Assembly (NCBI GenBank): GCA_041640595.1
Contig: JBEPZY010000003.1
Span: 593,311-657,310, forward strand
Length of the DNA stretch: 64,000 bases
Direction of reading: 5' to 3'
Origin: Gemmatales bacterium
Lineage (GTDB): Bacteria > Planctomycetota > Planctomycetia > Gemmatales > HRBIN36
Positions 13,353 through 33,392 of this stretch are shown piece after piece. Numbering within the stretch: position 1 is the stretch's first letter; each line of letters starts with the position of its first letter. The translations under genes and the position numbers were made by a program. The notes under the pieces are model-generated. The model was not told the DNA's origin. It made no database searches and saw nothing but the letters and a program-made list of their open reading frames with translations.

Positions 13353-13557
13353 CGCTGGCTTCAGGTTTTCTCGACGCCAGAACTGATCCGCATGGTTTTC
13401 CCGCCCAACGGTACATCCCGATTTGCTTCGACCGGAACGCCTCGCACTTATAGACGCCACACGAACTTCCAGCAGCGGCTGACATAAACAAGCCATGCAA
13501 ACACCAACGCAACTCCAGAAACGAACCGCCACCTGCAACAACTACCGCACGCCCAAC

Positions 13558-14042
13558 CAAGAGCGGCTGGCGTGGACCAGCCGTGGGACGCACGTGTTCC
13601 ACTCGGAGAAAAACGTCCGCGACTGCGGGTACGTTTGCGAACCACCGCGGGCTGACGCCCGCTGCTCTTGCACGGCCGTCACGTGGTCGCGTAAAGTGCA
13701 CGATTTTCGCCGCGCAGCGTTGGTTTCACCAAACCACGGCGGGCTGACGCCCGCCGCTCTTGGTCGAACGTGCGCTCGTGCACCGCAAAATCGTCGTTCT
13801 TCCGGTGGATGGCCGTTGTACCAGCGCCAAGAGCGGGGGGCGTAAGCCCCCCGTGGGAAAAGTATCGCTCTCGTCGGCGAGAATCGCCCATCTGCAACGG
13901 CGTCTGCACGTGCGACCAAGAGCGGGGGCGTAAGCTCCCCGTGGAGTGCATTCGGCGTGCGAACTCGCAATGCGGAAATGCAGCGCATTACACTTGCCGA
14001 CGCGGTTTGTCACCTACGGCGGGCTGACGCCCGCCGCTCTTG
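13558..14042. repeat. REP/BIME-like array 1 (6 hairpin nodes)
   Basis: Copies of CCACGG-N5-TNAC-N5'-CCGCTC in both orientations between convergent genes. Confidence 0.85.
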
Positions 14043-14049
14043 GAAGGCA

Positions 14050-16386
14050 TTACCAGTAGCGGGCCAGCAAATCACCCACCAATCCCACCAGCCTAGCCAC
14101 GGTGAGCACCAGCATCGTGGCCGTCCAGCCAACAGTAAGGATTTGCACCAGCCAATCACTCACACGCTCCCACCAATGGCGGTTGAAAAGCTCCCCCAGC
14201 CCGGTCTGGCCAGTGATCGGTGTGAGCGTTTCCGCGGTCGCAACTTCTCCGGCAGAGCTGGCCCGCATACGGACAGATTCGGGAGGACTATCAGCGTCAC
14301 TCCGGTGTTTCGCCTCATGCTCAGGAAGCTCGGCAGTCAGTTTTGTTCGCGGCGAAGCGTATCGGATTGTCAACGGCAACCAGACCCACGCCAGTAAACA
14401 CGGAAATAAATACCGCACCTGCATGCCGTAAATGAAGGGATACCGGGGCGGCGTAACCGCCAGGTACATGGTCAGCGCGGTCAGCACCCACGTGCCAGCA
14501 AACAGCAGCAAACCGATAACCATGACCACGACCAGTTGCAGCATCGCTTGCCGGTTCAGCCAGCTTGGGGCAAGCAAGAATGCCCGCAGCAGATCCACGG
14601 TTATCGCCGTAGCGACCAGTCCCCGCAACACGCCCAGATGATACGGGTGGAAATAGGTATCCACCCAACCGAGCGGCATGCACCATCTGTCGAAATGCAG
14701 GGGAATGTCCAGGGCTGTGGCTAGCGGCTGCTGCAGAAAATAACGCCAGCCGCCTTCCTGAATCAGAAACTCCAGCTGCTGGCGAAACTGGTCGGCCACG
14801 GGCAGTTCGTGCATCGCCCGGTAGGCCCGCCAGATTACCAGCACCAATAGTCCGGTCAAAACCAGCACAACCAATCCACCAATGCTCAGCACCAACTCCG
14901 GTCGCCAGCGCCGCCAGAAAGTCGCCCACAGCGGCAGCAAAAACAGACTCACGTAGATGGGCGGTTTCGCCAGAAAGGCCAGCAGAGCCATCAGCCACAA
15001 CGCTGCATAGCAGGCCAGCCAGTTTCGGCCATTTGCCGCTCCTTCATCCTGCCGACGCAGGGCCAGAAAAGTTAGTCCTGCCGACATGGCCGCCAGGTTG
15101 GCCAGCGTATCCGTACTGATGACCGTGCATTGCTGCTGCACATACGGAATCGAGAAAACGGCGAGCACGAAAGCCGGCAAATGTTCCCGACGCCAGAACC
15201 AGTACAGCAACGCCAAGATAATCAGCACCGGCAACAACCGGCACAAATAGTAAAAGACCAGCGCCTCGTTCACCGTCTCCACACGCGGGAAGCACCACGC
15301 TACCACCGCCACCATCGGGTAGGAGTGATACCAGGCGTAATTGACAAATTTCCGCTCGGTGATGGGCGTAATGTCCGCTCCCGTGGCACGGAACAGCGTC
15401 GGGGAAACTGCAGTTTCTGCCCGCCAGCGAACGCGATCAAAGCCGGTGATTTCCGGAAGGTTATACAGCAGCTTTTCCTCCACAGCATGACGCCGATAAC
15501 GAAGCAATGCGTCGCGCCAGTGGTCCTGCTCATCCGGGCCCTGAAACGGTGGTAGCCCGAAAACGGTAATGAGGAAACTGGCAGCGACAACCACCAGCCC
15601 GAATCCTTCCAGCATTTTCGTATGGATCACTCCGGGCCACAGCAGCATCGCCGCCAGTCCCGCACAGGTACAAGCCAGAATCAGCCCGGTCAGTCGCCAG
15701 GCACGCTGTTGCCACGCAGAAGCCGTCCACTTACCAGCATCGCCGGTGACCACTGCCTGCCAGCCGCCTATTCGCAACCGACAGAACTTCGGCAAGGCGA
15801 TCCGCACCTTCCTGGCCGGTTCTGGAAACCGCCAGATCACTCGCAGACCATCCTGCCACGTTTCCACTTCGCCACGCATCCGGTGCACATTAAGGAACGC
15901 ATCCAGACTCAAACAGAAGGCTTCCTGATCCGCATCGCTCACCGTCACCGGCACCCAGGCGAGTTTCCATTCCGGTACACAGGTACTGCCCGGTTCCAGA
16001 TACAATCGCAACTCTAGCATACCCCCAGCTACGGGACCAAACTCGAAGCTGCCGGCAGACTCTACGGTGCTGAGAACACGCTCGAAATCCTGGACGCCAA
16101 CGAAACGCCCCAGCGGAGCCTCCAACGGCGACCATTCCTTCAGGTAAAGAGCCAGACTATTCGACCCATCCGTGCCACGAGCCGTCGCGCTTGCATCCCC
16201 GGCGAAACGCTCGTGCACCCTCGGCACAATCAGCCCCAGAACCAATACAGCTGCAGCGGCAAGCACACGTGCTCGCCTGACCTGAATCCCAGTCATCCCG
16301 CAATCGCTCGTCGTCATTGCTTCGCCCACTTGCATACCCATACTATACCCCAACACCAGCCTGGCTAACCCTCTGACACTCAGCAT
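14050..16386 (-). CDS. DUF2142-like polytopic membrane protein (possible GT-C-type glycosyltransferase)
   Basis: PPFQGPDEQDHW motif, many TM helices, GMQVRYLFP; start codon uncertain. Confidence 0.75.
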   Translation of the reverse strand: MLSVRGLARLVLGYSMGMQVGEAMTTSDCGMTGIQVRRARVLAAAAVLVLGLIVPRVHERFAGDASATARGTDGSNSLALYLKEWSPLEAPLGRFVGVQDFERVLSTVESAGSFEFGPVAGGMLELRLYLEPGSTCVPEWKLAWVPVTVSDADQEAFCLSLDAFLNVHRMRGEVETWQDGLRVIWRFPEPARKVRIALPKFCRLRIGGWQAVVTGDAGKWTASAWQQRAWRLTGLILACTCAGLAAMLLWPGVIHTKMLEGFGLVVVAASFLITVFGLPPFQGPDEQDHWRDALLRYRRHAVEEKLLYNLPEITGFDRVRWRAETAVSPTLFRATGADITPITERKFVNYAWYHSYPMVAVVAWCFPRVETVNEALVFYYLCRLLPVLIILALLYWFWRREHLPAFVLAVFSIPYVQQQCTVISTDTLANLAAMSAGLTFLALRRQDEGAANGRNWLACYAALWLMALLAFLAKPPIYVSLFLLPLWATFWRRWRPELVLSIGGLVVLVLTGLLVLVIWRAYRAMHELPVADQFRQQLEFLIQEGGWRYFLQQPLATALDIPLHFDRWCMPLGWVDTYFHPYHLGVLRGLVATAITVDLLRAFLLAPSWLNRQAMLQLVVVMVIGLLLFAGTWVLTALTMYLAVTPPRYPFIYGMQVRYLFPCLLAWVWLPLTIRYASPRTKLTAELPEHEAKHRSDADSPPESVRMRASSAGEVATAETLTPITGQTGLGELFNRHWWERVSDWLVQILTVGWTATMLVLTVARLVGLVGDLLARYW

Positions 16387-17690
16387 TCTGTTTCATTCAT
16401 TGCTTATCCATACGCGTGCCCTGCCCACCCATACGGGCGGTACTCGTCTATCTGGCAGCCGGCATTTTGACTCATTGCTTACCCATACTGTACCCCGATA
16501 CCAACCCCTAGCCAGGAGGCCCAACCCCATCCACAATCTGCCCAACGAACACTTGCACGTCTCCAACCGCGCTTATTACCAGCCAGTTCCAGGCCAACAC
16601 GCACAGCTTTAAACTGCATCAGCGGTTGACCGTTATCATGCGGTTTAGTCGCATTCAACAGCCGTTACCTTTGACCTATTCCCAGCTTTCACGGAGGGAC
16701 CCCCCGCATCTACGGTCTTGGAATCATCCTGGTTACGTCGGCCGGCTTGTTATTCGGGGGCTTATCGAGCACGGAGAACCCGCGAGTGGGTGTCCCTGAC
16801 TTGGTGCAAGCAGACGTTTTTTGGGGGACAGTGCAAGCACGGAGAGAGAGTTGCCATGCGATACTCGCCAAGTTTGTGCCCAGTTTTTCGGGCACAGAGG
16901 GAGCACGGAGAGCCCGCCCAACTTACTTCGGGGGCTTGGAAAAGCTCCAGCTGGAACTGGGTCCGGTCTCCGTGGTAACCACGGAAAACCCGTCCGAGTT
17001 GCTTCGAGGCCCGCAAGGGGCTCGTTCATCGCCAGCACGCGGTTGGCTCCAATCGGCTGGGCCGAACGCCGCAACGTCGTGAGCGTGCGGTGTTCGAGGC
17101 TGAAAAAACGGGACTGTTCGTAAGCGGTTTTCCAGCCTGTGTTGGAAAATCGCCCGCGCCGAGCAAAGCTGGCGATGAGCCAGCACCCGCCACTGCCAAA
17201 ACTGGGCATAAGTCAGACCGAATACCGCTGGCGGTACATAGTCGGGATGGTCGAGTGCGAGTTATTAAGTCTTGAACTATTAGGAGCAAAACCAGAATCC
17301 GCTGGCGGTGCGTAGTTGGATGCTCGAGCGCTAGGCCGCTGGCGTTCCTGAATGATGGCCGGCTGAAACCGACGCCCAGCATATACCGTTCGCGTCGGCA
17401 TGTGGAACTTTATAGGTGCGTTGAATCGTACCCCTACATCGCAGTGGATGGCCCGGCGAAAAAATAGAGCCTGCCAGCCAAGCTCCGTACTCAGCAACGA
17501 CACAAATATGCCTATCTGGCCGGCGGAAGCGTTAAGCCTGCCACCCAAACCTCCACCCACGTTCAGCCACAATTGCGAGCCAGATACAAGCGGACGTTGA
17601 ACCATGAAGCGGCACTGCCGATGATGGCTTACGCCATTCGCCGCATATTTTTCACTCCACTCACGTTTTCGACATCAAGCCTGCTTCTTC

Positions 17691-18608
17691 TCAGCGGTCG
17701 GTGAAAGGGATGAATTTGGCGCGATCGCGGACGAGCGGGTGTTCGTCTGCGTGTAACTGCTTGACAAGTTCCGGCGTCCGCAGGAAGGGATATTTCAATA
17801 GCACATGCACCACATACCGCCGCGAATACCACGCCCCATCGTTAGCCAGCCGTTGCAAGTGATCCCGAGTCAGCTTGATCTCAGCAAACTGCCTATGTCC
17901 ACGCTGCATTCGCCACGCTGTCGTCTCAACCAGGTGGTTGGTCAATTCGACTTCCTGTAACGTGAAACGGGTTGAACAGGAATTATATACCGCCCATTCA
18001 TGTCTCCTAAATTCTTCCCAGGCTTCGCATGGGAGTTCCTCAAACAGGTATTCGATGAGCTCTCTTGGCACATCTTTTTTGTACTCCTGCAAAACCTGAC
18101 CGTAGGTTCTTCTTTTCCACTCCTTCGGAACATCTAGCTGATAAGGGCATTCAGCAACACTATCTACAAGGCGAAGCAGATAGTGAGCCGTGATTGCCAC
18201 AGACCTTCTCTCGTCCGGCTCCTCCGGGTCTCTCCACTTTTCCAGACTCCCATCAGGATAGCATGACAGATACTTCACCAGCTCGCTCCGCGCGTCGTCG
18301 TGATGGCCTAAAAGGAGCAAATGAACACCTTTGGCCTGCAGTTCTATAAAGGGAACCTTGTCGTGTGTTAGTAGGACCAGAACAGCCTGGATAAACTCCG
18401 CAGGACTGTCCAGGTAGACCTCGTTCAGAGTCCGAACGGGCACAGTGTCCTTCCCTGACATGACTTTATATGACTTTGTCTTCCGAACTTGTTCAACATT
18501 AAGTTTTGGCCGGTCTTGAGCCGAAGCTATGAGGAACCAGCCTAAACTCAACGAGCCTACGAACGCAAGCAGGAAATGCGGGAAATTTAGATGTGGGCCC
18601 CTGCACAT
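17691..18608 (-). CDS. Exported hypothetical protein, candidate immunity/partner of the hydrolase cassette
   Basis: GGAGG RBS; signal peptide ending ASA|QD; starts 32 nt after the cassette 2 stop; HEAT-like C-terminal motif. Confidence 0.75.
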   Translation of the reverse strand: MCRGPHLNFPHFLLAFVGSLSLGWFLIASAQDRPKLNVEQVRKTKSYKVMSGKDTVPVRTLNEVYLDSPAEFIQAVLVLLTHDKVPFIELQAKGVHLLLLGHHDDARSELVKYLSCYPDGSLEKWRDPEEPDERRSVAITAHYLLRLVDSVAECPYQLDVPKEWKRRTYGQVLQEYKKDVPRELIEYLFEELPCEAWEEFRRHEWAVYNSCSTRFTLQEVELTNHLVETTAWRMQRGHRQFAEIKLTRDHLQRLANDGAWYSRRYVVHVLLKYPFLRTPELVKQLHADEHPLVRDRAKFIPFTDR

Positions 18609-18639
18609 AAGTGTTCCTCCTGTTAGTCAGAAGCCAAAC

Positions 18640-20499
18640 CTAGCGCATATTCACACGCCCTAGAAAGCGGTTCCGAAGCTCCTCCTGAACAAATTGATCA
18701 TCATCAATCGCTCTGTGGTCTAATTGTTGGCCAGGATTGATCTGCGGGGCGTTTACATTGCGATCGACATTGCTACCGGGAACCGGCGCTCCTTGGGGTC
18801 CCCCCAATTGCTGATAGTAATTGGCATGAAACTGAGTCCGCCGAGGCAGATTGGTTTCCGCTCTCGGAGGAACGGACCCATGTTCGATGGCATCCACATA
18901 AGCAGTAAACGGAACCACGAAGTGGCGCTGGAATGGATTTTGTGGGTTGGCGAGGTCCTGGTCAATCCGTGCCAGAAGGTTGCGGGTCGCTCCGCCGCCG
19001 TAACTGAAACCCATCACTACTAAATTGTTGATATTGTGGCGATTTACCGCGCGTAGCGCCCAGTCATAAGCCAGCCCTGTACCGGCTTGGTCCCCTCCAC
19101 GCTGCTCGTTTTCACCAAACAGGTGCACGTCATAGCCATCCTCAGCATATAGCCGCTGCCTGGCAAAATTGAACAAACCGTTCCCTCTCTGATTCGTCAT
19201 CGGATCAGGATTTTGTGTGAAGCCGCCAATTACGATGACCGTGGTTTGGAAGCGATAGAACGTCAGGCTGTCGGACTGGCCCACCACCTGTCCGTTGGCA
19301 TTCCGTGCCTCGAAAGTCAACACCGCATTCACCGGCTGCTGCTGATCCCCTATCCATTCCACCCACAAGGTCGCCGTTCCCCCTTGCCCAAAATTGACCT
19401 TCACCTCATTAAGATTATTACCAAACAAACCGTTCCCGGGTTTCGCCGGCCCCGTCCAGACCTGCAGCACACCGGCACTCCGTTTCAAGTAATAGTCGAT
19501 TCCCGCCGGTGGTTGTTGCACGCCAAACTGCAAGTCTATCCGCACCAGGTCATCCTCACCCGCCACCCCGTTGTTGTCGCGATAATCAGCCATCCCATCA
19601 TTATCATCGTCATCGCCATTGAAGCGAATCCCCACGCCGGGATTATCCTCTTGATTGGCCGGTACCGGCGGCACCTGCTGCTCCTGCCGAGCTGCGTTCG
19701 GTGGCATAAACCGGTTGTACGGCCGATAGCCTGTCAGGTCTAATACTAAATTCTGAGGTGGCGGTTGCTGATTCGGCTTTACTTGCACCTGTACCTGAGC
19801 CACCGCAGAAGTGGCTCTACCATCGCTAACCTGGTAATAGAATTCATCCTCACCAGTGTATCCCGCTGCTGGAGTATAGACGAGCAATCCACCCAGGTCA
19901 ACCATCTCACCATGCCGCGGCCCAGTTATGATTGTGTAGCTCAGAAGATCACCATCCGGATCATACGCTGCCCAGGCATACTCTGAACCGAGTGCCGGTT
20001 CAGCCATGATGCTCAGACTAAACATCACGAGGGTATCCTCAACCGTCTCGATAGACATATCTACCGCCACCGGGGCCCGATTCGAAATCTCGATGGTGAC
20101 GCTCGCTATTTCACTAGCCGAGATACCATCCGACCAGTAATAAGTAAAGGTTTCCGCACCGACAAATCCTTCCGGCGGGATATAAGAGAAAGTTCCGTCT
20201 AATCCTAAGTACACCGAGCCCACGCCTGGTTCCGAATTCAAGAACGCATAAATCGGATCACCATCCGGATCATAACCATCCAGTTGGCCACTGACCAGCT
20301 GATTCCGATAAGTATGAACAACTGCTTGGTAAGCCACCGGTGCGCTGTTATACACATCTATCGAAACCGTCACCGTGTTGCCGGTGGTCAAGCCGTCCGA
20401 CCAGGTGTAGGTGGAACTGTCGGCGCCGATGTAGTTCGTGTTCGGTGTGTACGTAAAGGTGCCGTCGGGATGGAATGTTAGTTTACCGTTGGTCGGGCC
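18640..20499 (-). CDS. Orphan cassette 2: tandem Ig/cadherin-like repeats plus C-terminal alpha/beta-hydrolase; no credible own start
   Basis: YDPDGD/GTFSY/FTY repeats; GFSYGGG nucleophile elbow, YVD and DH residues; the frame stays open upstream of TTG 20391 to about 20499 (GPTNGKLTFHPDGTFTYTP). Confidence 0.75.
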   Translation of the reverse strand, partial: GPTNGKLTFHPDGTFTYTPNTNYIGADSSTYTWSDGLTTGNTVTVSIDVYNSAPVAYQAVVHTYRNQLVSGQLDGYDPDGDPIYAFLNSEPGVGSVYLGLDGTFSYIPPEGFVGAETFTYYWSDGISASEIASVTIEISNRAPVAVDMSIETVEDTLVMFSLSIMAEPALGSEYAWAAYDPDGDLLSYTIITGPRHGEMVDLGGLLVYTPAAGYTGEDEFYYQVSDGRATSAVAQVQVQVKPNQQPPPQNLVLDLTGYRPYNRFMPPNAARQEQQVPPVPANQEDNPGVGIRFNGDDDDNDGMADYRDNNGVAGEDDLVRIDLQFGVQQPPAGIDYYLKRSAGVLQVWTGPAKPGNGLFGNNLNEVKVNFGQGGTATLWVEWIGDQQQPVNAVLTFEARNANGQVVGQSDSLTFYRFQTTVIVIGGFTQNPDPMTNQRGNGLFNFARQRLYAEDGYDVHLFGENEQRGGDQAGTGLAYDWALRAVNRHNINNLVVMGFSYGGGATRNLLARIDQDLANPQNPFQRHFVVPFTAYVDAIEHGSVPPRAETNLPRRTQFHANYYQQLGGPQGAPVPGSNVDRNVNAPQINPGQQLDHRAIDDDQFVQEELRNRFLGRVNMR

Positions 20500-20518
20500 C
20501 GTTGGTGGGGCCGGAGGC

Positions 20519-20593
20519 TGATTACGCCGAGAAAACGCCGGGGCTTGAAAGCATTGGCACGGTAATAGCGTCGCCGTCGGGATCGTTGCCGTA
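20519..20593 (-). repeat. Junction repeat copy 2 (33 nt of Ig-repeat coding sequence plus the 42-nt stop-containing element)
   Basis: 70/75 nt identical to 23300-23374 by manual alignment. Confidence 0.9.
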
Positions 20594-20751
20594 TACGGAG
20601 ACGCTCAGTCCGTGATTAGTGGAGGCACAAAAAATGGGCTAAGGGAGTTAACTCTGCTTGGCCGATGCCGCAAAAAAAATCTGAGTGTTTCCTTGCCTTC
20701 TCAGTCCTGAGAGCGAATTGTTTATATAGTTGTTCGCTATAAGCGCGGTAA

Positions 20752-21573
20752 TCATTCAAGACCAATTAGCTTCAACTGCGACAGTTTCCAGGGCAGGTCT
20801 TTGGAGGCGGGATCCTCGGCCTTGCCAGAGACAAATTCTATATCACAGGGACCTATTTGGCATTGAATGATCCATTTTTCGGATTTCGCATCCCAACGCA
20901 GGTCGGTAAGTTTGATTCCCCGTCTTCCGAGCAGCTGTTGGGATTCCCAATCCGCAAGACCCACGAATAGAGAGAGTTTTTCCCCGAGCGTAATTTGTAT
21001 CGAGCCTTCAACGCTGATCGGCAAGCTGTGCTGCCAGATGCTAGAAAAATACCTATGATGAACGATACTTTCCAACTGCCGTTCCTCCGGTTTTGCAGGC
21101 AACTTTGGTGGTGCGTCCGGGTCCCTAAGTGTTTTGCTCAGATCAAGCTGGTAAAACGCAATCTCACTCGGTCCGGCGATGAACGCCAGGCCTATACGGT
21201 CGCGGTCTCGGGCTACCACTCGGAAGTCGCGGGGTATATATTTTGGCTTAGTAAATTGGGTGTCGCGATAATTTTCAATATAGTTAACTTTCCAGACCTC
21301 TCTGCGTTCCAATTCGCTACTAACCACTCCACGCAGCACCACCCAAATCGCCTTGTAGGTTGTCCCCGGCGGGGCACCGTAATCATACTCCATTTTAACC
21401 TCTTCCATGTAAATCTCGAACTTGCGATTATCAGGCAATGGAAACGTAGCCACAGGCTTATTCGGAGAGCTACTCACCGGCTTACCCTCATTCGGCAAGA
21501 GCCTAGTCGTGCAGGCGAGGAAGAAAATTAATCCTGACGCGAATGCTGCTAATTGTTTTACACCTCTCAGCAT
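20752..21573 (-). CDS. Exported/lipoprotein-like hypothetical protein, candidate immunity/partner of the transglutaminase cassette
   Basis: AAGGAGG RBS; MLRGVKQLAAFASGLIFFLAC lipobox-like signal; directly follows cassette 1. Confidence 0.75.
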   Translation of the reverse strand: MLRGVKQLAAFASGLIFFLACTTRLLPNEGKPVSSSPNKPVATFPLPDNRKFEIYMEEVKMEYDYGAPPGTTYKAIWVVLRGVVSSELERREVWKVNYIENYRDTQFTKPKYIPRDFRVVARDRDRIGLAFIAGPSEIAFYQLDLSKTLRDPDAPPKLPAKPEERQLESIVHHRYFSSIWQHSLPISVEGSIQITLGEKLSLFVGLADWESQQLLGRRGIKLTDLRWDAKSEKWIIQCQIGPCDIEFVSGKAEDPASKDLPWKLSQLKLIGLE

Positions 21574-21643
21574 GGTTGACCTCCTTAGCGGTTCGTTATG
21601 GTTGCAGTTGAGTGATGAGGCGTTCTGCAACTGCAGCTAGGAA

Positions 21644-23302
21644 TCACAACTCCACAAATCTTGTTTCTATCCTTTTAGGGTCGTTCTTCTTGTAAAAGGT
21701 GCCGCCAAACCTGTCCTGTCCGAATCCATCTAGAGAAGCGTTTTCCCAGGCGTCTTGCGTCCTAAATGGGCCAGTGCCATAAGACGGATCGTAGTATTGA
21801 CCTTTAAGACGCACAATATAATGGTTGTAAAAATTGCTAGGGGGATCATCGTTTCCTTGTCCAGGAACGCCTCTCAGTTCCGTTACGTCAGTAGAGCGAT
21901 AAATGTATGGTTTCGTCGCAGGCGAGGTCGGTTTGCCAAAGCGCCAGTTCTTTACTAGTATCCGAGTCTCGGCAGGCAGTCCGTCAGGCGTCATTGGACG
22001 GCCAGCAGCATTGACTGGTTCGTCTATGTTGAATACATGCACTCGTTTCACGTCGGTTATACCTTGGGCGAGCATGATATCCCTCAAAAAGTACGCCCAG
22101 GAGCCGCACTGCCCGTTTGCGTGGGCTAAAAGTTGCTGTGTGTTGACCGCAGTGGCCCTGCCGCCATCCCAGTACCTCAATTGAGTGCCATCCACCCGGC
22201 GGACTTCCCGATCAGTGAAATCACTCCAAATTGCTGAGATAACATCCGATTCGTTTGCTTTGCCGTCAGCGTTCTTCGAGCCCAGATGCACCAGGGTATG
22301 GTATAAGTTCACCCCTGGTTTGAGGGCAGGGTCGGCAAAAGTAAGGTACAAAGGATTTTGCGTGGTCCCGGCCTTCGTCCAGGTTGAGTTGGCGCGCTGG
22401 CTGTCGGAGGTGGCTTGCCAGTCCAGCCTGAAGAGATTTGCACCAACGTAAGCTTGCACCACATTCGGAAATGCCACCGGCGACTCCGTCTCGTCAAGCA
22501 CGAGTTCAGTCGGGTTCGTCGGGTCCACGCGCACAGCCTTCGGCCCTACGTGAATCTGGAATCCCGTCGCAGGGTCCGCCGGCCCCGTCGCCATCACATA
22601 AATCGGGCCGCCACCCCACGCAGTATCTAAGACGAACCGGGCACTCACTTTTAACGTTGCACCCCGGGTGTAAGCGTATGGCCAGCTATGCTCACCCGCA
22701 TCCTCCGCATCCCCGTCTAAGTTTGTGTCCAACCAGTGTTCCGAACTATAGGCCACGTCGGGAGCTATTGCTCCAGTCGGGTCCAGCTCCGGGTCCCGGT
22801 ACACGGTATGCCCGCCGCTGAACGTTACCGACCGGCTACCAAGGATTTTAGCCGTGTGAACAACGACCGTTTGTGTCGCCTCGGCAACGCCATCACTAAC
22901 GGTGTACGTGAACGAGTCGTCCCCAGTGTGGTCGGCAGCTGGATAATAAGCAAAATCACCGTTGGGATTCATCACCAGATGAGCACCGGATGGGAGTCGC
23001 ATCCACTGCGGGAGTGGCTGATCGTCAATCTTGACCACGCGTAAGCTATCGCCATCGGCGTCCGTATCGTTCGCCAGGACGTTTCCCCAAACGGCACTCC
23101 CCGCCAGGACGTAATACTCGTCATTTACAGCCTCCGGAGCAGTGTTATGAACAGCAATCCAAGCCATAGCCAGGCCTAAAGCTATACCATCCGTAAACCC
23201 AAATACAAAAGCATCCGTGCCAGTATAACCAGCCGCCGGTGTATATATAAATCTGCCATCATCATTCAATACCACCGTGCCATTCGTCGGAGCGGAGATT
23301 GA
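21644..23302 (-). CDS. Cassette 1: Ig-like repeats plus C-terminal transglutaminase-like domain, in frame with the stalk ORF behind a single TAA
   Basis: NDTDADGD repeat; GQCGSWA, NHYIV and YYDPSYG give a Cys-His-Asp triad; the frame continues directly from 23302. Confidence 0.75.
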   Translation of the reverse strand, partial: SISAPTNGTVVLNDDGRFIYTPAAGYTGTDAFVFGFTDGIALGLAMAWIAVHNTAPEAVNDEYYVLAGSAVWGNVLANDTDADGDSLRVVKIDDQPLPQWMRLPSGAHLVMNPNGDFAYYPAADHTGDDSFTYTVSDGVAEATQTVVVHTAKILGSRSVTFSGGHTVYRDPELDPTGAIAPDVAYSSEHWLDTNLDGDAEDAGEHSWPYAYTRGATLKVSARFVLDTAWGGGPIYVMATGPADPATGFQIHVGPKAVRVDPTNPTELVLDETESPVAFPNVVQAYVGANLFRLDWQATSDSQRANSTWTKAGTTQNPLYLTFADPALKPGVNLYHTLVHLGSKNADGKANESDVISAIWSDFTDREVRRVDGTQLRYWDGGRATAVNTQQLLAHANGQCGSWAYFLRDIMLAQGITDVKRVHVFNIDEPVNAAGRPMTPDGLPAETRILVKNWRFGKPTSPATKPYIYRSTDVTELRGVPGQGNDDPPSNFYNHYIVRLKGQYYDPSYGTGPFRTQDAWENASLDGFGQDRFGGTFYKKNDPKRIETRFVEL

Positions 23303-23374
23303 TTACGCCCAGAAAACGCTGGGGCTTGAAAGCATTGGCACGGTGATAGCTTCGCCGTCGGGATCGTAGCCGTA
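23300..23374 (-). repeat. Junction repeat copy 1 (contains the 42-nt element at 23300-23341)
   Basis: Minus strand GTGCCAATGCTTTCAAGCCCCAGCGTTTTCTGGGCGTAATCA. Confidence 0.9.
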
Positions 23375-24217
23375 GAGCTGGCCGACCAACTCGCGGTCGT
23401 GCAGCACGCTGAAGCTGGCGTCGTAGGCATACGGCGCGTTGTTCGTGATCAGGATGTTAACCATCGCGGTGTAGCTGTCTAAGTCGTCGCTAATCGTCAG
23501 GCTGAACGAGTCGGTACCAGTAAAGTTTGGCGGTGGGGTATAGCTAAATGTGCCGTCCGCCCATACGGTTAGCGAGCCACCCGACGGCAGGCTCATCGGC
23601 TCCCCGTAACTAATCGCCTGACCGTTGATGTGAGTAATGCGTATCGCGTCGCCGTCCGGATCATAAGCACCACTAAGTAAGTTGCCCATTAAGTCCCGAT
23701 CGTGCAGGATACTAAACTCCTGGTCGCCTAACTGCGGCATATTGTTGAACACATTGATAGTTACCCAGGCCGTGCTCTCAGATTCCCCGTCGCTGATCGT
23801 ATAGCTAAAACTTACCTGCCCCTTATATCGCAGCGTCGGCGTAAAGGTGAAACTGCCATCCTGCTCGACGGTGAGATAACCGTAAATCAAGTCGCCATCC
23901 TGCAAGGTAATCTGCGTGCCGGGTGTATAGGTCTGACCGTTGATGCGGGTGATGCTTAGTGTGTTGGCGTCGGGATCGTAATCGTTCGACAGGAGGTTGG
24001 CGAACAGTGTGGTGTCGTGCAACAGGTCGAACCAATCGTCCGCGGCGAAGGGCGAACTATTGCCTAAACCGTTGGGAGCATTGCGATCCTCTAACATTTC
24101 GACCCTCAACCGAACCTGACTCGGCGGACTTAGATGCCGATTGCGTTTGAGCCGACTCCAGAGTTCACACCACCAGGCGCGCAATCGCCCGTGTGTGTGT
24201 GTGCTCGTTCCAGGCAC
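23303..24217 (-). CDS. Exported Ig/cadherin-repeat 'stalk' protein with a planctomycete export motif
   Basis: RLRVEMLEDR motif; NDYDPDA, AYDPDGD and GYDPDGE repeats; the likely true ATG (24243) is out of frame. Confidence 0.8.
   Translation of the reverse strand: MPGTSTHTHGRLRAWWCELWSRLKRNRHLSPPSQVRLRVEMLEDRNAPNGLGNSSPFAADDWFDLLHDTTLFANLLSNDYDPDANTLSITRINGQTYTPGTQITLQDGDLIYGYLTVEQDGSFTFTPTLRYKGQVSFSYTISDGESESTAWVTINVFNNMPQLGDQEFSILHDRDLMGNLLSGAYDPDGDAIRITHINGQAISYGEPMSLPSGGSLTVWADGTFSYTPPPNFTGTDSFSLTISDDLDSYTAMVNILITNNAPYAYDASFSVLHDRELVGQLYGYDPDGEAITVPMLSSPSVFWA
24191..24203. repeat. (GT)6G / (CA)6C microsatellite in the 5' end of the stalk gene
   Basis: gtgtgtgtgtgtg read directly. Confidence 0.9.
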
Positions 24218-24360
24218 ACACAGCGGTCAACGAAGCTCATCATGGCTAGCCTCCTCTTGGGAACAGACCGAAGGGGAAATCTGCGTCGGGTCGCCTGATG
24301 CCCGCGTGCCCGACTCCCGATAGGCACCGACCGAAGTGGAGACGGCCACCAACCGCAGCC

Positions 24361-24444
24361 CAAGCGACTGCAATCGCAGGTAAAGCAACCGCAATCGCAG
24401 CTCAAGCGACCGCAATCGCAGGTGAAGCGACGGCAATCCAAGCT
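24361..24444. repeat. Four tandem 21-bp repeats
   Basis: caagcgactgcaatcgcaggt / aaagcaaccgcaatcgcagct / caagcgaccgcaatcgcaggt / gaagcgacggcaatccaagct. Confidence 0.9.
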
Positions 24445-24640
24445 GAAGTTACCAAAAACCACGCCGCCCTCCGGAGCAAACGACAAAAATTTTTACTGCG
24501 GCGGTAATTTTCGGCAAGTTGCGGACTGTGCATAGGTTACGGAGGCGGCGGACGGGCCCGATCCGGCAATTGTGCGAAACGCAGAAAGGGGACCCGACAA
24601 AGGGGCCCATAGCCAAGGCAAACTCTAATCCCGGGTCAGG

Positions 24641-24757
24641 GCGAGAAAGTGCTTTTCGACCGGTGCGGAATGTAAAGGGAGAAATACAGACCAACATGTC
24701 GAGCATTCATGGTCGCGAAAAAGTGTTATTCGGCCGGTGCGGAATGTAAAAGGAGAA
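24641..24757. repeat. Pair of 43-bp direct repeats (74-bp period)
   Basis: 24641-24683 versus 24715-24757, 5 mismatches. Confidence 0.8.
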
Positions 24758-24771
24758 CAGAGTCAGCGGGG

Positions 24772-26208
24772 CTAATACTTAGGGAGGATGTTTTTGATGC
24801 CTTCGTCGAGGGGCATCTTATCGGGCCAGCCTTCGGTTTCTTTGAGCAAGCGTTCTAATTCCGCCTGTAATTCAGCGACCTTACCGGCGTATTTAGGATC
24901 ATCAATCAGGTTATGGCGTTCCAGGGGGTCGCTTTTGAGGTGGTATAGTTCTGCCTTGTGTCGGTCGGGTTTACCGTCGCCGTGAGGATAACGGATGTAT
25001 TTCCACTCTTCGGTACGCACGCCGCGAACGTTGGGAGTATAGGGGAACTCTTTTTCGTAGTTATACTCGTAAAGCCAGCTGGTGCGCCAGGGAATCGCTC
25101 GCCCTTGCAGCAAAGGTTTCCAGGAGCGTCCGTGACAGTATTCCAGGGGTTTTGCGCCGCAGATATCTAAGATGCTGGGAGCAAGGTCTATATTGAGTAC
25201 CATCTGCTCGACAGTTGAGCCGGGACGTGCCAGTTTCGGATAGCGTACTAATAAAGGGACGCGGATACTCTCCTCGTACATAGTGCGTTTATCCACGCGG
25301 CCGTGCTCACCGAGAGCAAAGCCGTTGTCGCTGGTGAAAATGATCACGGTGTTGTCGAGCTGGCCGGTGGTTTTCAAGGTCTCGTAAATACGGCCGACAC
25401 TGTCATCCACGGAAACCAGCGTGGCGAGATAATAACGCACGAATTTCGGATACTCTTTCAAGCCGTACAAGGGGCCCCCGATACCATGCCAGGTAGGGCG
25501 ACACAATTTGAGCCATTCCGGTTTGCCGGTGTAATCATCGGCGGTAACCGGTCGTGAAACCGGTTGGGCGTCGAAAATCCGCTCATATTTAGGTTCCGGA
25601 ACGATCGGCCCGCCATGGGGAGCTTTGTGTCCGAGGATGAGCAGGAAGGGTTTGTTTCTTCGTTGCCGCAGCCAGTTGACCGCGTAATCGGTAATCACGT
25701 GGGTATAGTAGCCTTTGATGAGCTGACGCTGGCCATTGATGTTGAACTCGTTGTCGAAGTAATTTCCCTGTCCGCGATGGCTCATCCAGAAATCGAAACC
25801 CGGGCGAGGCTGATCCTCCTGTTCGCCCATGTGCCATTTGCCGATATAGGCAGTTTCGTAGCCGAGCTCGTGCAAACGACGGGGATAGCTGGGAAGGTGG
25901 TTGGGGTAATCGGTGAAGTTATTGAGAACCCCGTGGCGATGGGCATACAGTCCGCTCAGCATCGAGGCCCGACTCGGCGAGCATAAAGCTGTGGTGACAA
26001 AGGCATTGGTAAACCGCACTCCCTCGTGAGCCAGGCGGTCTATGTTGGGCGTCTTGAGAAACGGATGGCCGGCACAACTCATGGCATCCCAGCGCTGATC
26101 GTCGGTAATGATGACCAGCACGTTGGGGCGATCGGGTTCGGCTGCGAAAAGGCCGGTGGTTACCAGCAGCCCGCTCAAGAGCATTATCCAGGACACAAGC
26201 CGACGCAT
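24772..26208 (-). CDS. Formylglycine-dependent sulfatase
   Basis: Signal peptide; PNVLVIITDD, CSPSRAS and GKWH motifs. Confidence 0.95.
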   Translation of the reverse strand: MRRLVSWIMLLSGLLVTTGLFAAEPDRPNVLVIITDDQRWDAMSCAGHPFLKTPNIDRLAHEGVRFTNAFVTTALCSPSRASMLSGLYAHRHGVLNNFTDYPNHLPSYPRRLHELGYETAYIGKWHMGEQEDQPRPGFDFWMSHRGQGNYFDNEFNINGQRQLIKGYYTHVITDYAVNWLRQRRNKPFLLILGHKAPHGGPIVPEPKYERIFDAQPVSRPVTADDYTGKPEWLKLCRPTWHGIGGPLYGLKEYPKFVRYYLATLVSVDDSVGRIYETLKTTGQLDNTVIIFTSDNGFALGEHGRVDKRTMYEESIRVPLLVRYPKLARPGSTVEQMVLNIDLAPSILDICGAKPLEYCHGRSWKPLLQGRAIPWRTSWLYEYNYEKEFPYTPNVRGVRTEEWKYIRYPHGDGKPDRHKAELYHLKSDPLERHNLIDDPKYAGKVAELQAELERLLKETEGWPDKMPLDEGIKNILPKY

Positions 26209-31256: not shown

Positions 31257-31303
31257 ACACCGGCCCCGTTCATGCCAGTTGCACCGAACAAACACCGCGC
31301 AAC

Positions 31304-33392
31304 CAGGAGCGGCTGGCGTGAGCCAGCCGTGGTTCGAGAAACGCGTTTGCAGCGGTAACACCGCAATTGTCGCGCAGAGGCCACCAGTCGGTGGTCTGTG
31401 CACGGACACCGTTGCAACTGCGTTACTCACACCCACGGCGGGCTGACGCCCGCCGCTCCTGCTGGTACGTTCGCGAGTCGGCGAACAGTGCTCGATTTTT
31501 GCGATAGCCCATTGTATCACCCGCCACGGCGGGCTGACGTCCGCCGCTCCTGGGAATGCGCGTTCGTGCATCGCACAAATCGTTTTTCCGCCGACAAACG
31601 TTCGCAACTCAACACAAGAGCGGGGGGCGTAAGCCCCCCGTGGTGCGGGAGCCGATTGTGCAGTGGCAAACGTAACCACTCCACGGAGATCGCTCGCCAT
31701 TGCAGATGCGTTTTTCGATACCACGGCGGGCTGACGCCCGCCGCTCCTGGGAATGTGCGTTCGTGCATCGCACAAATCGTTTTTTTCCCCGACAAACGTT
31801 CGCACTGCACCAAGAGCGGGGGGCGTAAGCCCCCCGTGGGATACAAAACGCCGTTGCAAATCGCAACCGCTTTTCTGCGGCAATCTGCGCGCGGGCAATC
31901 AGGAGCGGCTGACGTGAGCCAGCCGTGGTTCGAGAAACGCGCTTGCAGCGGCAACACCGCAATTGTCGCGCAGAGGCGACCAGTCGGTGGTCTGTGCACG
32001 AACACCGTTGCAACTGCGTTACTCATACCCACGGCGGGCTGACACCCGCCGCTCTTGCGAATGTGCGTTCGTGCATCGCACAAATCGTTTTTTCCCCGAC
32101 AAACGTTCGCACTGCACCAAGAGCGGGGGGCGTAAGCCCCCCGTGGGATGTTCTCGGTATGCGAACTCGAAACGCGGAAATCCAACGCGTTGCCGTTGCC
32201 AACGTGGTTTCCGACCAGCGGCAGGCTGACGCCGGTCTCTGAACGAAAGCGCCCGCAATTGCAATAACGTTACTCATACCCACGGCGGGCTGACACCCGC
32301 CGCTCTTGTTGGTACGTTCGCGAGTCGGCGAACAGTGCTCGATTTTTGCGATAGCCCATTGTATCACCCACCACGGCGGGCTGACGCCCGCCGCTCTTGG
32401 GAATGTGCGTTCGTGCATCGCACAAATCGTTTTTCCGCCGACAAACGTTCGCAACTCAACACAAGAGCGGGGGGCGTAAGCCCCCCGTGGGATGTTCTCG
32501 GTATGCGAACTCGAAACGCGGAAATCCAACGCGTTGCCGTTGCAACCGTGGTTTGCGACCAGCAGCAGGCTTACACCGGTCGCTGGACGAAATCGCCCGC
32601 AATTGCAACTGCGTTACTCATACCCACGGCGGGCTGACGCCCGCCGCTCCTGGGAATGCGCGTTCGTGCATCGCACAAATCGTTTTTTCGCCGACAAATG
32701 TTCGCCCTGCACCAAGAGCGGGGGGCGTAAGCCCCCCGTGGGAAACAAAACGCCGTTGTCAATCGCAACCGCTTTTCTGCAGCAATCCGCGCGCGGGCAA
32801 CCAGGAGCGACTGGCGTGAGCCAGCCGTGGTTCGAGAAACGCGTTTGCAGCGGTAACACCGCAATTGTCGCGCAGAGGCCACCAGTCGGTGGTCTGTGCA
32901 CGGACACCGTTGCAACTGCGTTACTCATACCCACGGCGGGCTGACGCCCGCCGCTCTTGCTGGTACGTTCGCGAGTCGGCGAACAGTGCTCGATTGTTGC
33001 GATAGCCCATTGTATCACCCGCCACGGCGGGCTGACGCCCGCCGCTCCTGGGAATGCGCGTTCGTGCATCGCACAAATCGTTTTTTCGCCGACAAACGTT
33101 CGCACTGCACCAAGAGCGGGGGGCGTAAGCCCCCCGTGGGATGTTCTCGGTATGCGAACTCGAAACGCGGAAATCCAACGCGTTGCCGTTGCCAACGTGG
33201 TTTCCGACCAGCAGCAGGCTGACGCCGGTCTCTGAACGAAAGCATCCGCAATTGCAACTGCGTTACTCATACCCACGGCGGGCTGACGCCCGCCGCTCTT
33301 GTTGGTACGTTCGCGAGTCGGCGAACAGTGCTCGATTTTTGCGATAGCCCATTGTATCACCCACCACGGCGGGCTGACGCCCGCCGCTCCTG
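31304..33392. repeat. REP/BIME-like mosaic array 2 (20 intact hairpin nodes, 3 decayed nodes, 6 recurring linker types)
   Basis: Manual parse; lies between convergent rsmA and an aminotransferase gene. Confidence 0.92.

Follow-up and report, generated by a model that had tools for sequence, protein, structure and literature searches.

A probable polymorphic toxin-like expression locus with exchangeable enzyme heads on an immunoglobulin-like stalk in a hot-spring Gemmatales genus

Polymorphic toxin loci, namely CdiA/CdiI, Rhs/RhsI and MafB/MafI, are defined in the accessible text of PMC4436062 (Jamet and Nassif 2015) as having a constant N-terminal trafficking region, a variable C-terminal enzyme and a cognate gene directly downstream, together with orphan C-terminal (CT)/immunity modules that carry a homologous region and with variation at the strain level. 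The same traits, with a trafficking region that is putative, are seen in the locus described here, which lies on the minus strand of a 64,000-nucleotide (nt) stretch from a Gemmatales bacterium (the window; positions 593311-657310 of contig C3 of the source genome, G000) and encodes a stalk of immunoglobulin (Ig)-like repeats, two enzyme heads on Ig cassettes and two follower proteins. We estimate a probability of about 0.7 that it is the expression site, that is, the site bearing the export motif, of a polymorphic toxin-like system in a hot-spring Gemmatales genus. Four architectural features of such systems are present: varied C-termini, varied N-termini, a downstream cognate gene and orphan modules with a homology arm. 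Orphan modules devoid of the trafficking region are represented by the second cassette of the window, by tips of 159 and 142 amino acids (aa) on contig C4 of the same genome, and by loci L146 and L148 (L-numbers denote related loci, P-numbers relative proteins, X-numbers sequencing runs, and G002 and G003 relative genomes). Unlike the contact-dependent inhibition (CDI), Rhs and MafB systems, this locus combines a planctomycete export motif with a Big_9 scaffold, secreted followers and a (CA)n switch; exchange also occurs inside the catalytic domain, and most cassettes lie in a separate island. Pfam and NCBIfam scans of the open reading frames (ORFs) of the locus found only Ig/cadherin-type families and no Rhs/YD, haemagglutinin or MafB domain. 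Assignment to CDI (CdiBAI) was rejected, as haemagglutinin repeats, a two-partner secretion domain and a cdiB neighbour were not found and the flanks are a sulfatase and DUF2142; an Rhs toxin was rejected for want of a YD/RHS core family. The locus appears to work like a polymorphic toxin system, and its membership would depend on the predicted toxicity.

In its accessible text, PMC3482391 (Zhang et al. 2012) describes Sec-exported toxins, the Tox-TGase and Tox-ABhydrolase1-3 domains, HEAT-repeat immunity proteins and planctomycete hosts, and gives ALF, ankyrin, beta-propeller, RHS, Sel1, TPR and tail fibre as repeats of the Sec route. Our locus resembles these type II secretion system/Sec toxins in its transglutaminase (TGase) and alpha/beta hydrolase domains, its possibly HEAT-like partner and its planctomycete host; the terms 'cadherin', 'Gemmata' and 'phase variation' do not occur in the first 300,000 of the 357,715 characters of that paper, supplements apart. 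The literature searched (titles and the starts of abstracts, with subscription papers mostly outside) yielded neither a description of this scaffold nor experimental work on polymorphic toxins from planctomycetes. The envelope effectors Tle/Tli and Tae/Tai of type VI secretion systems (T6SS) have periplasmic immunity proteins, and they share with our locus a lipase-like or Cys-His-Asp enzyme, an immunity gene with a signal peptide and tandem immunity paralogues; they differ in that the locus has no T6SS parts, its enzyme ends an Ig stalk, and structural Z scores do not favour Tle. The pilE/pilS and vlsE systems are cases of antigenic variation with an expression locus and silent cassettes. Like them, and like phase variation by simple sequence repeats (SSRs), the locus has one start and export site, silent partial copies elsewhere, mosaic alleles and an on/off tract, whereas here the catalytic tip varies with a co-moving partner gene and the host is a free-living thermophile.

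The order on the minus strand, on which all features of the locus lie, is ribosome-binding site (RBS) and ATG, stalk, junction J1, cassette 1, follower 1, junction J2, cassette 2 and follower 2, and every part of the layout drawn in the initial annotation was found in its place. The stalk gene (23303..24243) has a GAGGAGG RBS at 24256-24250 and an ATG at 24243-24241 (together 24241..24256), both read directly; its stalk frame (24226-23303) encodes Big_9/cadherin-like Ig repeats (E 2.6e-33) and ends at a TAA in J1. An N-terminal export-like motif of the planctomycete type, LRVEMLEDR, lies at 24077..24112. Cassette 1 (21644..23302) comprises 552 codons with two Ig repeats, a beta-sandwich and a TGase-fold head, and cassette 2, an orphan (18640..20499; open frame 20604-18640, 654 codons), comprises three Ig repeats, a sandwich resembling the PAD middle domain and an alpha/beta hydrolase. 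Follower 1 (20752..21573, 273 aa) and follower 2 (17691..18608, 305 aa) both have a signal-peptide-like start and are putative cognate immunity proteins, the latter for the hydrolase family. As had been claimed, the cassettes have no RBS of their own when inspected by eye, and sites of the AGGAGG type precede both followers, whose N-termini are hydrophobic. Stalk and cassette 1 share one reading frame, separated by a single TAA at 23305-23303. In L038 the same stalk (91%) has no junction insert and reads directly into cassette-1 Ig sequence; therefore stalk and cassette 1 are one gene, which is broken here. Overall, the comparisons show the natural gene as a predicted export motif, an Ig stalk and an enzyme head, followed by a gene for a secreted partner. 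Misassembly was ruled out, as L026, a 17.4-kb sequence from an independent assembly, matches the whole locus at 99.5% and contigs of run X2 tile positions 16000-26000 at a depth of 29-47, with no single contig spanning the region.

The question raised at the outset, whether different heads follow one stalk, can be answered in the affirmative. L038 carries, after a frameshift, a different TGase-like head behind the same stalk, the stalk of G002 carries yet another head, and mosaic tips stand behind the same pre-tip. Compared per 100 nt, the TGase head of the window is 96-100% identical to its C4 copy for 700 nt and then 45-67%, and it is 51-69% identical to L020 for 600 nt and then 86-98%. The switch falls at the GQCG motif (22114), where the contigs of all four runs break too, and the variable tip begins at about 22114 in the TGase head and at about 19221 in the hydrolase head. 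The hydrolase relative P0003 is identical at 128/130 pre-tip positions and at 90/162 tip positions, P0005 at 129/130 and 58/127, and the TGase relative P0024 at 225/242 and 75/143; the hydrolase relatives P0001 and P0002 are close in pre-tip and tip alike. Across strains, pre-tips are 93-99% identical and catalytic tips 46-56%. The crossovers lie in Ig repeats and beside catalytic motifs. At the sequence level, these comparisons show variation at two levels, with whole heads exchanged behind the Ig repeats and half-domain tips exchanged at conserved motifs next to the catalytic Cys or, in the hydrolase, ahead of the nucleophile loop.

Contig C4 holds an island of about 199.9-226 kb (C4:199900-226200; L053, L054) with a guanine-plus-cytosine (GC) content near 50%, which contains Ig-plus-head cassettes and orphan tips along with numerous genes resembling those of secreted followers and a phage-integrase-family tyrosine-recombinase gene (216394-218223). 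One array consists of Ig plus hydrolase and a follower, then an orphan tip of 159 aa and a follower, and then an orphan tip of 142 aa, again with a follower. L044 carries this pre-tip too (97-100% over about 900 nt), there ending in the first orphan tip of G000 (96.6%), and the first tip/follower pair is missing; this is not an assembly collapse, because about 65 tip residues of L044 are absent from G000. Most simply, the old tip in G000 was displaced by a new tip/follower pair. Every tip is seen with its own follower, with which it moves, and the comparisons show putative head/follower and tip/follower pairs devoid of promoters both downstream in the window and on C4. The export-motif pattern occurs at 30 places in the genome, including in long proteins, and is followed by DxDGD Ig repeats only in the window gene (1/30). 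Because only this gene joins an export-like motif to DxDGD repeats, C4 looks like a silent cassette reservoir. Other head classes on the same Ig repeats include an HExxH head (C4), a DUF3238 head with a WD40 follower (L020) and uncharacterised heads. The polymorphic-toxin-like organisation suggested in the initial annotation is borne out by different heads and tips on the same stalk or pre-tip and by orphan arrays on C4 and in other phyla; orphan head/follower pairs are exchanged as proposed there. The (CA)n switch had been overlooked, as had the reservoir on C4.

Several further observations concern these cassettes. In L020:1-3190 an Ig stalk ends in DUF3238 (PF11579, E 2e-6), and the next gene encodes a secreted WD40 protein. 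DUF3238 is a candidate for one more toxin-like head, and no paper on it was found in the literature searched. Catalytic residues are swapped in the TGase-like head of L038 (Ser for Cys) and in a hydrolase head of C4 (Cys for Ser; L053:14139-16889). More cassette fragments lie at C4:234100-239300 (L055), and at the island edge (G000:C4:197296-199188) a Clp N-terminal-like region is, by eye, fused to an AAA+ ATPase. L046:1500-2300 joins the cassette start at C4:208.9k to the flank at C4:239k, by a 30-kb inversion or an assembly chimera. The apparent inversion between the C4:208.9k and 238.9k copies in L046 was set aside, as the switch falls upstream of the insert, within a near-identical tract common to both, and a chimera is equally likely.

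Neither head region matched Pfam at E<=0.5, and structure models confirmed both folds as first guessed. Head 1 (22840-21647) was modelled with a predicted local distance difference test score (pLDDT) of 96 as a beta-sandwich plus a TGase fold (Foldseek match TG3, E 2e-6, template-modelling score 0.31); comparison by VIA gave a Z of 8.6 (root-mean-square deviation (rmsd) 8.2, 283 aligned) and, for TglA, of 6.9 (rmsd 2.9, 122 aligned). Its catalytic codons are Cys 22108, His 21823 and Asp 21790, and the triad is conserved (Cys245 in 86/88, His340 in 88/88 and Asp351 in 87/88 rows), so that the model places the head in the transglutaminase-like superfamily with a papain-like fold and a Cys-His-Asp triad. 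The family is widespread, with 2336 representatives (at 50% identity) at E<=0.001 and members in 49/267 Gemmatales genomes, and the head is C-terminal in 130 of the 133 relatives that bear the YDPSYG motif among the 150 listed. Head 2 was modelled with a pLDDT of 88 and resembles lipase 6nkc (VIA Z 14.6, rmsd 3.0, 162 aligned); it is also near the Tle4-Tli4 chain 4r1d (Z 12.2) and TleB 9j3f (Z 13.1), among many tied hydrolases. With catalytic codons Ser 19005, Asp 18894 and His 18717, conserved in 19/20, 20/20 and 17/20 rows, it is predicted to be an alpha/beta hydrolase with a GxSxG nucleophile, an acid and a His. These folds indicate chemistry, not targets.

The pairing of heads with followers extends to other genomes. 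A homologue of follower 2 is the next gene in 13/43 hydrolase loci and lies within the locus in 15/43; once the five loci of the window's own genus group are set aside (three being circular with the query), 10/38 and 12/38 remain. Hosts include metagenome-assembled genomes (MAGs) of Binatia, Acidobacteriota, Pirellulales, Victivallales and Kiritimatiellae, and L146 and L148 repeat the tip/follower array, such arrays being found in Rhodopirellula and Kiritimatiellae MAGs. The follower-2 family is rare (5/267 Gemmatales genomes), and 8 of its 14 matches have a hydrolase ORF directly upstream, 3 stand at contig ends and 3 have none. In a language-model atlas follower 2 fell near HEAT-like clusters (0.91-0.92, with recognition below threshold, a weak lead), and complex prediction for hydrolase residues 155-366 with follower 2 scored 0.01 (mark 0.32), which is uninformative either way. 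P0015, of 755 aa, has a hydrolase head that runs, by eye, into a follower-2-like domain, either as a fusion or as a read-through of gene calling. Follower 1 has no Pfam or NCBIfam family and reached at most 0.82 in the atlas (a lead only). A homologous TGase/follower 1 pair is present at both G000 copies, the C4 homologue being 29.5% identical, and other follower families occur elsewhere: at 26/30 TGase-head loci (one being the window) a closely linked gene downstream encodes a hydrophobic N-terminus, most of these genes belonging to other families, counted without a control set. Follower 1 was compared with the follower of the G003 TGase head, and no similarity was found. Its reading as a lipoprotein is doubtful, since its Cys lies in F-L-A-C, which differs from the canonical lipobox, and the C4 homologue has no such Cys. 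Both heads form the ends of proteins that differ widely in architecture and reach more than 2000 aa, and full-length genes with an export motif, head and follower and no Big_9 repeats exist in other planctomycetes (L070, L077, L138); the Ig stalk is therefore a genus-level chassis on a wider pairing. The export-motif match of G003 (L157) proved to be a different protein.

Between start and export motif lies a (CA)n tract of 13 nt (24191-24203), a putative phase-variation switch. This length puts the ATG and the stalk into different frames in G000. The tract has 11 nt in L026 and 17 nt in L019, both in frame, and 15 nt in L038, out of frame; overall five lengths were seen, 11 and 17 nt in frame and 13, 15 and 19 nt out of frame. 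Among sequencing runs, a change of +2 is seen at full depth in X3 and one of +6 at 31 of 101.6 in X8. Only five dinucleotide tracts of at least six units exist in the whole genome, this one included, and G002, another species, has a shorter tract at the same place in its stalk gene, likewise out of frame. Such a frame-switching, length-variable tract, with lengths compared between strains, has the properties of SSR phase variation, and we infer such variation here. The stalk gene of the window is doubly off, with the tract out of frame and a stop at J1. L026 is in frame and has the J1 stop, L038 has the tract off and a later frameshift, L019 is truncated after the motif, and G002 has the tract off and several insertions.

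J1 and J2 had been proposed as a 75-nt swap device. The direct repeat is indeed present in both places, with a length of 95 nt, 87% identity and the copies 2781 nt apart. In J1 (23280..23374) an Ig repeat carries 33 inserted nt (23341-23309) and the TAA; J2 (20487..20593) has the same insert (20560-20528), a TAA (20524-20522) and, just after J2, a 13-nt duplication that shifts the frame of cassette 2. An intact repeat reads YDPDGDAIT-AQLVSGPTNG, and the junction adds 11 codons after AIT; in the window the Gln codon after the insert is a TAA, and the copy at C4:208885 has the insert and no stop. A BLAST search of the genome found three more insert-bearing copies, all on C4, plus one decayed copy, and in an alignment of 23 segments the insert is present in 8 (one much decayed) and absent from 15. 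It matches an intact repeat in tandem (permuted) register at 19/33 positions, a value reached by 15/100000 shuffles, and 12 intact repeats at 14-21 of 33 positions; therefore it is most likely a decayed duplication of an Ig repeat. J1 is an apparent chimera of a J2-type 5' part and a C4:208885-type 3' part, which suggests conversion. With the insert lying 5' of at least five different heads, we regard it as a putative marker of descent at cassette starts, not a switch. The proposed swap is not supported: the junction is an ordinary Ig repeat whose insert is missing from 15 other aligned repeats and from the L038 stalk. Nor would a crossover between J1 and J2 place head 2 behind the stalk, as the protein would still terminate because the TAA sits identically in both copies, and the predicted deletion of cassette 1 was not seen: no clean 2781-nt skip exists among the joints listed from four runs, in which contigs drop rare variants.

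Insertions of another kind, with 73-75-nt duplications plus filler, interrupt the Ig repeats of C4, L020, L038 and G002. In a period scan of the genome, periods of 65-68 and 72-76 stood out against a background of a few hits each; the commonest duplications were 30 and 37 nt long, and hits numbered 166 and 192, the second count including units of true arrays, or some 300 overall. These two classes match two CRISPR arrays (30-nt and 37-nt repeats) beside two cas1 genes; every one seen within sequence coding for Ig repeats belongs to the 73-75-nt class. The scars are probably off-target spacer integrations and resemble those reported by Nivala et al. 2018, as cited in the accessible text of 10.1101/148544; spacer insertion may thus bear on silent stalk copies as a mutagen. 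In the window, scars lie at 24641-24757 (period 74), 16387-16490 (75), 16750-16930 (66-76) and 17217-17316 (74), and the scan found none within 17691-24256. The junctions were rejected as such scars, since they add 33 nt (46 with the duplication) and not 65-68 or 72-76; a trimmed scar is conceivable.

Considering these data, we propose that exchange proceeds by homologous recombination or gene conversion with no dedicated site, and that the junction insert is the decayed scar of a duplication at the 5' end of a cassette and hitch-hiked into the stalk. The heads would be exported by the planctomycete motif, presented on the surface and directed against the envelope of neighbouring, probably related, cells, the hydrolase as a lipase or esterase and the TGase fold as an amidase, protease or cross-linker. 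By analogy with Tle/Tli and Tae/Tai, the followers would be periplasmic immunity proteins; since they are still made from their own RBSs while the stalk gene is off, the strain would be immune and unarmed. Several points weigh against this proposal. Toxicity of the heads, its neutralisation by the followers and a route from the stalk to a target cell stand as predictions. The motif claimed in the initial annotation is present as a pattern and misses the Pfam threshold (PF07595, 15.5 bits under a 25.5-bit cut-off). A script found no adjacent follower-2 homologue at 28/38 distant hydrolase loci, three follower-2 matches have no upstream head in the fetched DNA, and behind TGase heads outside G000 no homologue of follower 1 was detected. 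All 5/5 stalk copies seen are broken, with no intact stalk-head gene seen in the genus, and the ratio of nonsynonymous to synonymous polymorphism (pN/pS) of the tips and one follower is 0.77-1.1 from small counts, which fits decay or diversification.

The last two points would suit a decaying relic, that is, a former toxin/immunity system whose cassettes, junction and tract alleles are debris of repeat recombination and off-target spacers, and the 73-75-nt scars in the Ig repeats of C4, L020, L038 and G002 point the same way. Such a relic is compatible with our explanation as to origin and differs in present function. We consider it improbable, as purifying selection is seen on the stalk (pN/pS 0.22, against L038) and on follower B (0.18), both heads and followers of the window are open with complete triads, and the tract position is common to another species; moreover, intact alleles may be under-sampled because metagenome contigs break at repeats. 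Somewhat less improbable, and still unlikely in our judgement, is that these are secreted or surface enzymes for matrix modification, adhesin processing or nutrient scavenging, with followers as foldases or transit inhibitors and tips that tune substrate range, and no killing. Lipase-specific foldases are dedicated partner proteins of secreted lipases, the folds here are generic for lipases/esterases and transglutaminases, Ig repeats are typical of adhesins, and the distant relatives of the hydrolase are single secreted proteins whose N-termini are diverse and which often lack an array. Against this, followers are retained behind truncated tips incapable of being enzymes, a single scaffold serves unrelated head classes that each have a follower family of their own, and no lipase-chaperone Pfam match was found at the locus. 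At L096/L101 (G143:C240), two tandem follower-2 homologues stand with no hydrolase in the fetched DNA as orphan immunity-like genes, which suits immunity and not a foldase. We give very little credence to the junction as a specific recombination site, for instance for the C4 tyrosine recombinase, at which cassette 1 would be excised and head 2 joined to the stalk. The insert before at least five different heads and the integrase-family gene in the island would favour it; the stop in both window copies, an Ig-derived insert that decays freely and has no conserved short hairpin between copies, the many cassettes that start without it, and crossovers that map elsewhere all speak against it. A bolder version of our main explanation, which we put forward tentatively and at well under even odds, is a live weapon of the Planctomycetes-Verrucomicrobia-Chlamydiae (PVC) superphylum that resembles antigenic variation, with a phase-variable expression site and a distant cassette reservoir, chimeric specificities, accumulating immunity genes, toggling between armed and immune-only states, and spacer insertion as a recurrent mutagen of silent stalks.

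The G000 assembly is 4.45 Mb and 95% complete, with a GC content of 57.6% compared with 49-59% across the locus in 500-nt windows. Named close homologues are Gemmatales MAG proteins, and the runs containing the stretch are mostly hot-spring or mat metagenomes; RNA run X15 contains 46% of its sequence words. Upstream of the stalk, a block (24283-24454) is 88% similar to a block before another gene (C3:268543-268662), and a 21-nt tandem repeat (24350..24454) varies in copy number between strains and runs, with skips of 45-53 nt in X3, X4 and X8. A promoter and terminator scan, uninformative for planctomycete hosts, found no promoter-like site 5' of the ATG, a transfer RNA scan of four loci found none, and in 40 relatives searched at the DNA level the only matches were short ones to Ig or follower sequence. 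Of the 35 distinct loci, 28 had no match to the Ig-cassette family and were excluded. Clusters of short palindromic repeats resembling repetitive extragenic palindromes or miniature inverted-repeat transposable elements lie on both strands at 13470-14048 and 31275-32000 of the window.

The locus offers two unclassified candidate families of envelope-acting toxins, one of them widespread, together with candidate families of secreted immunity proteins. It also captures, in natural strains, how tips are replaced within a catalytic domain and how a gene of this kind carries an on/off tract. Even if the heads should be non-toxic, it would be a clear case of enzymes and their partners being shuffled together on an Ig scaffold.

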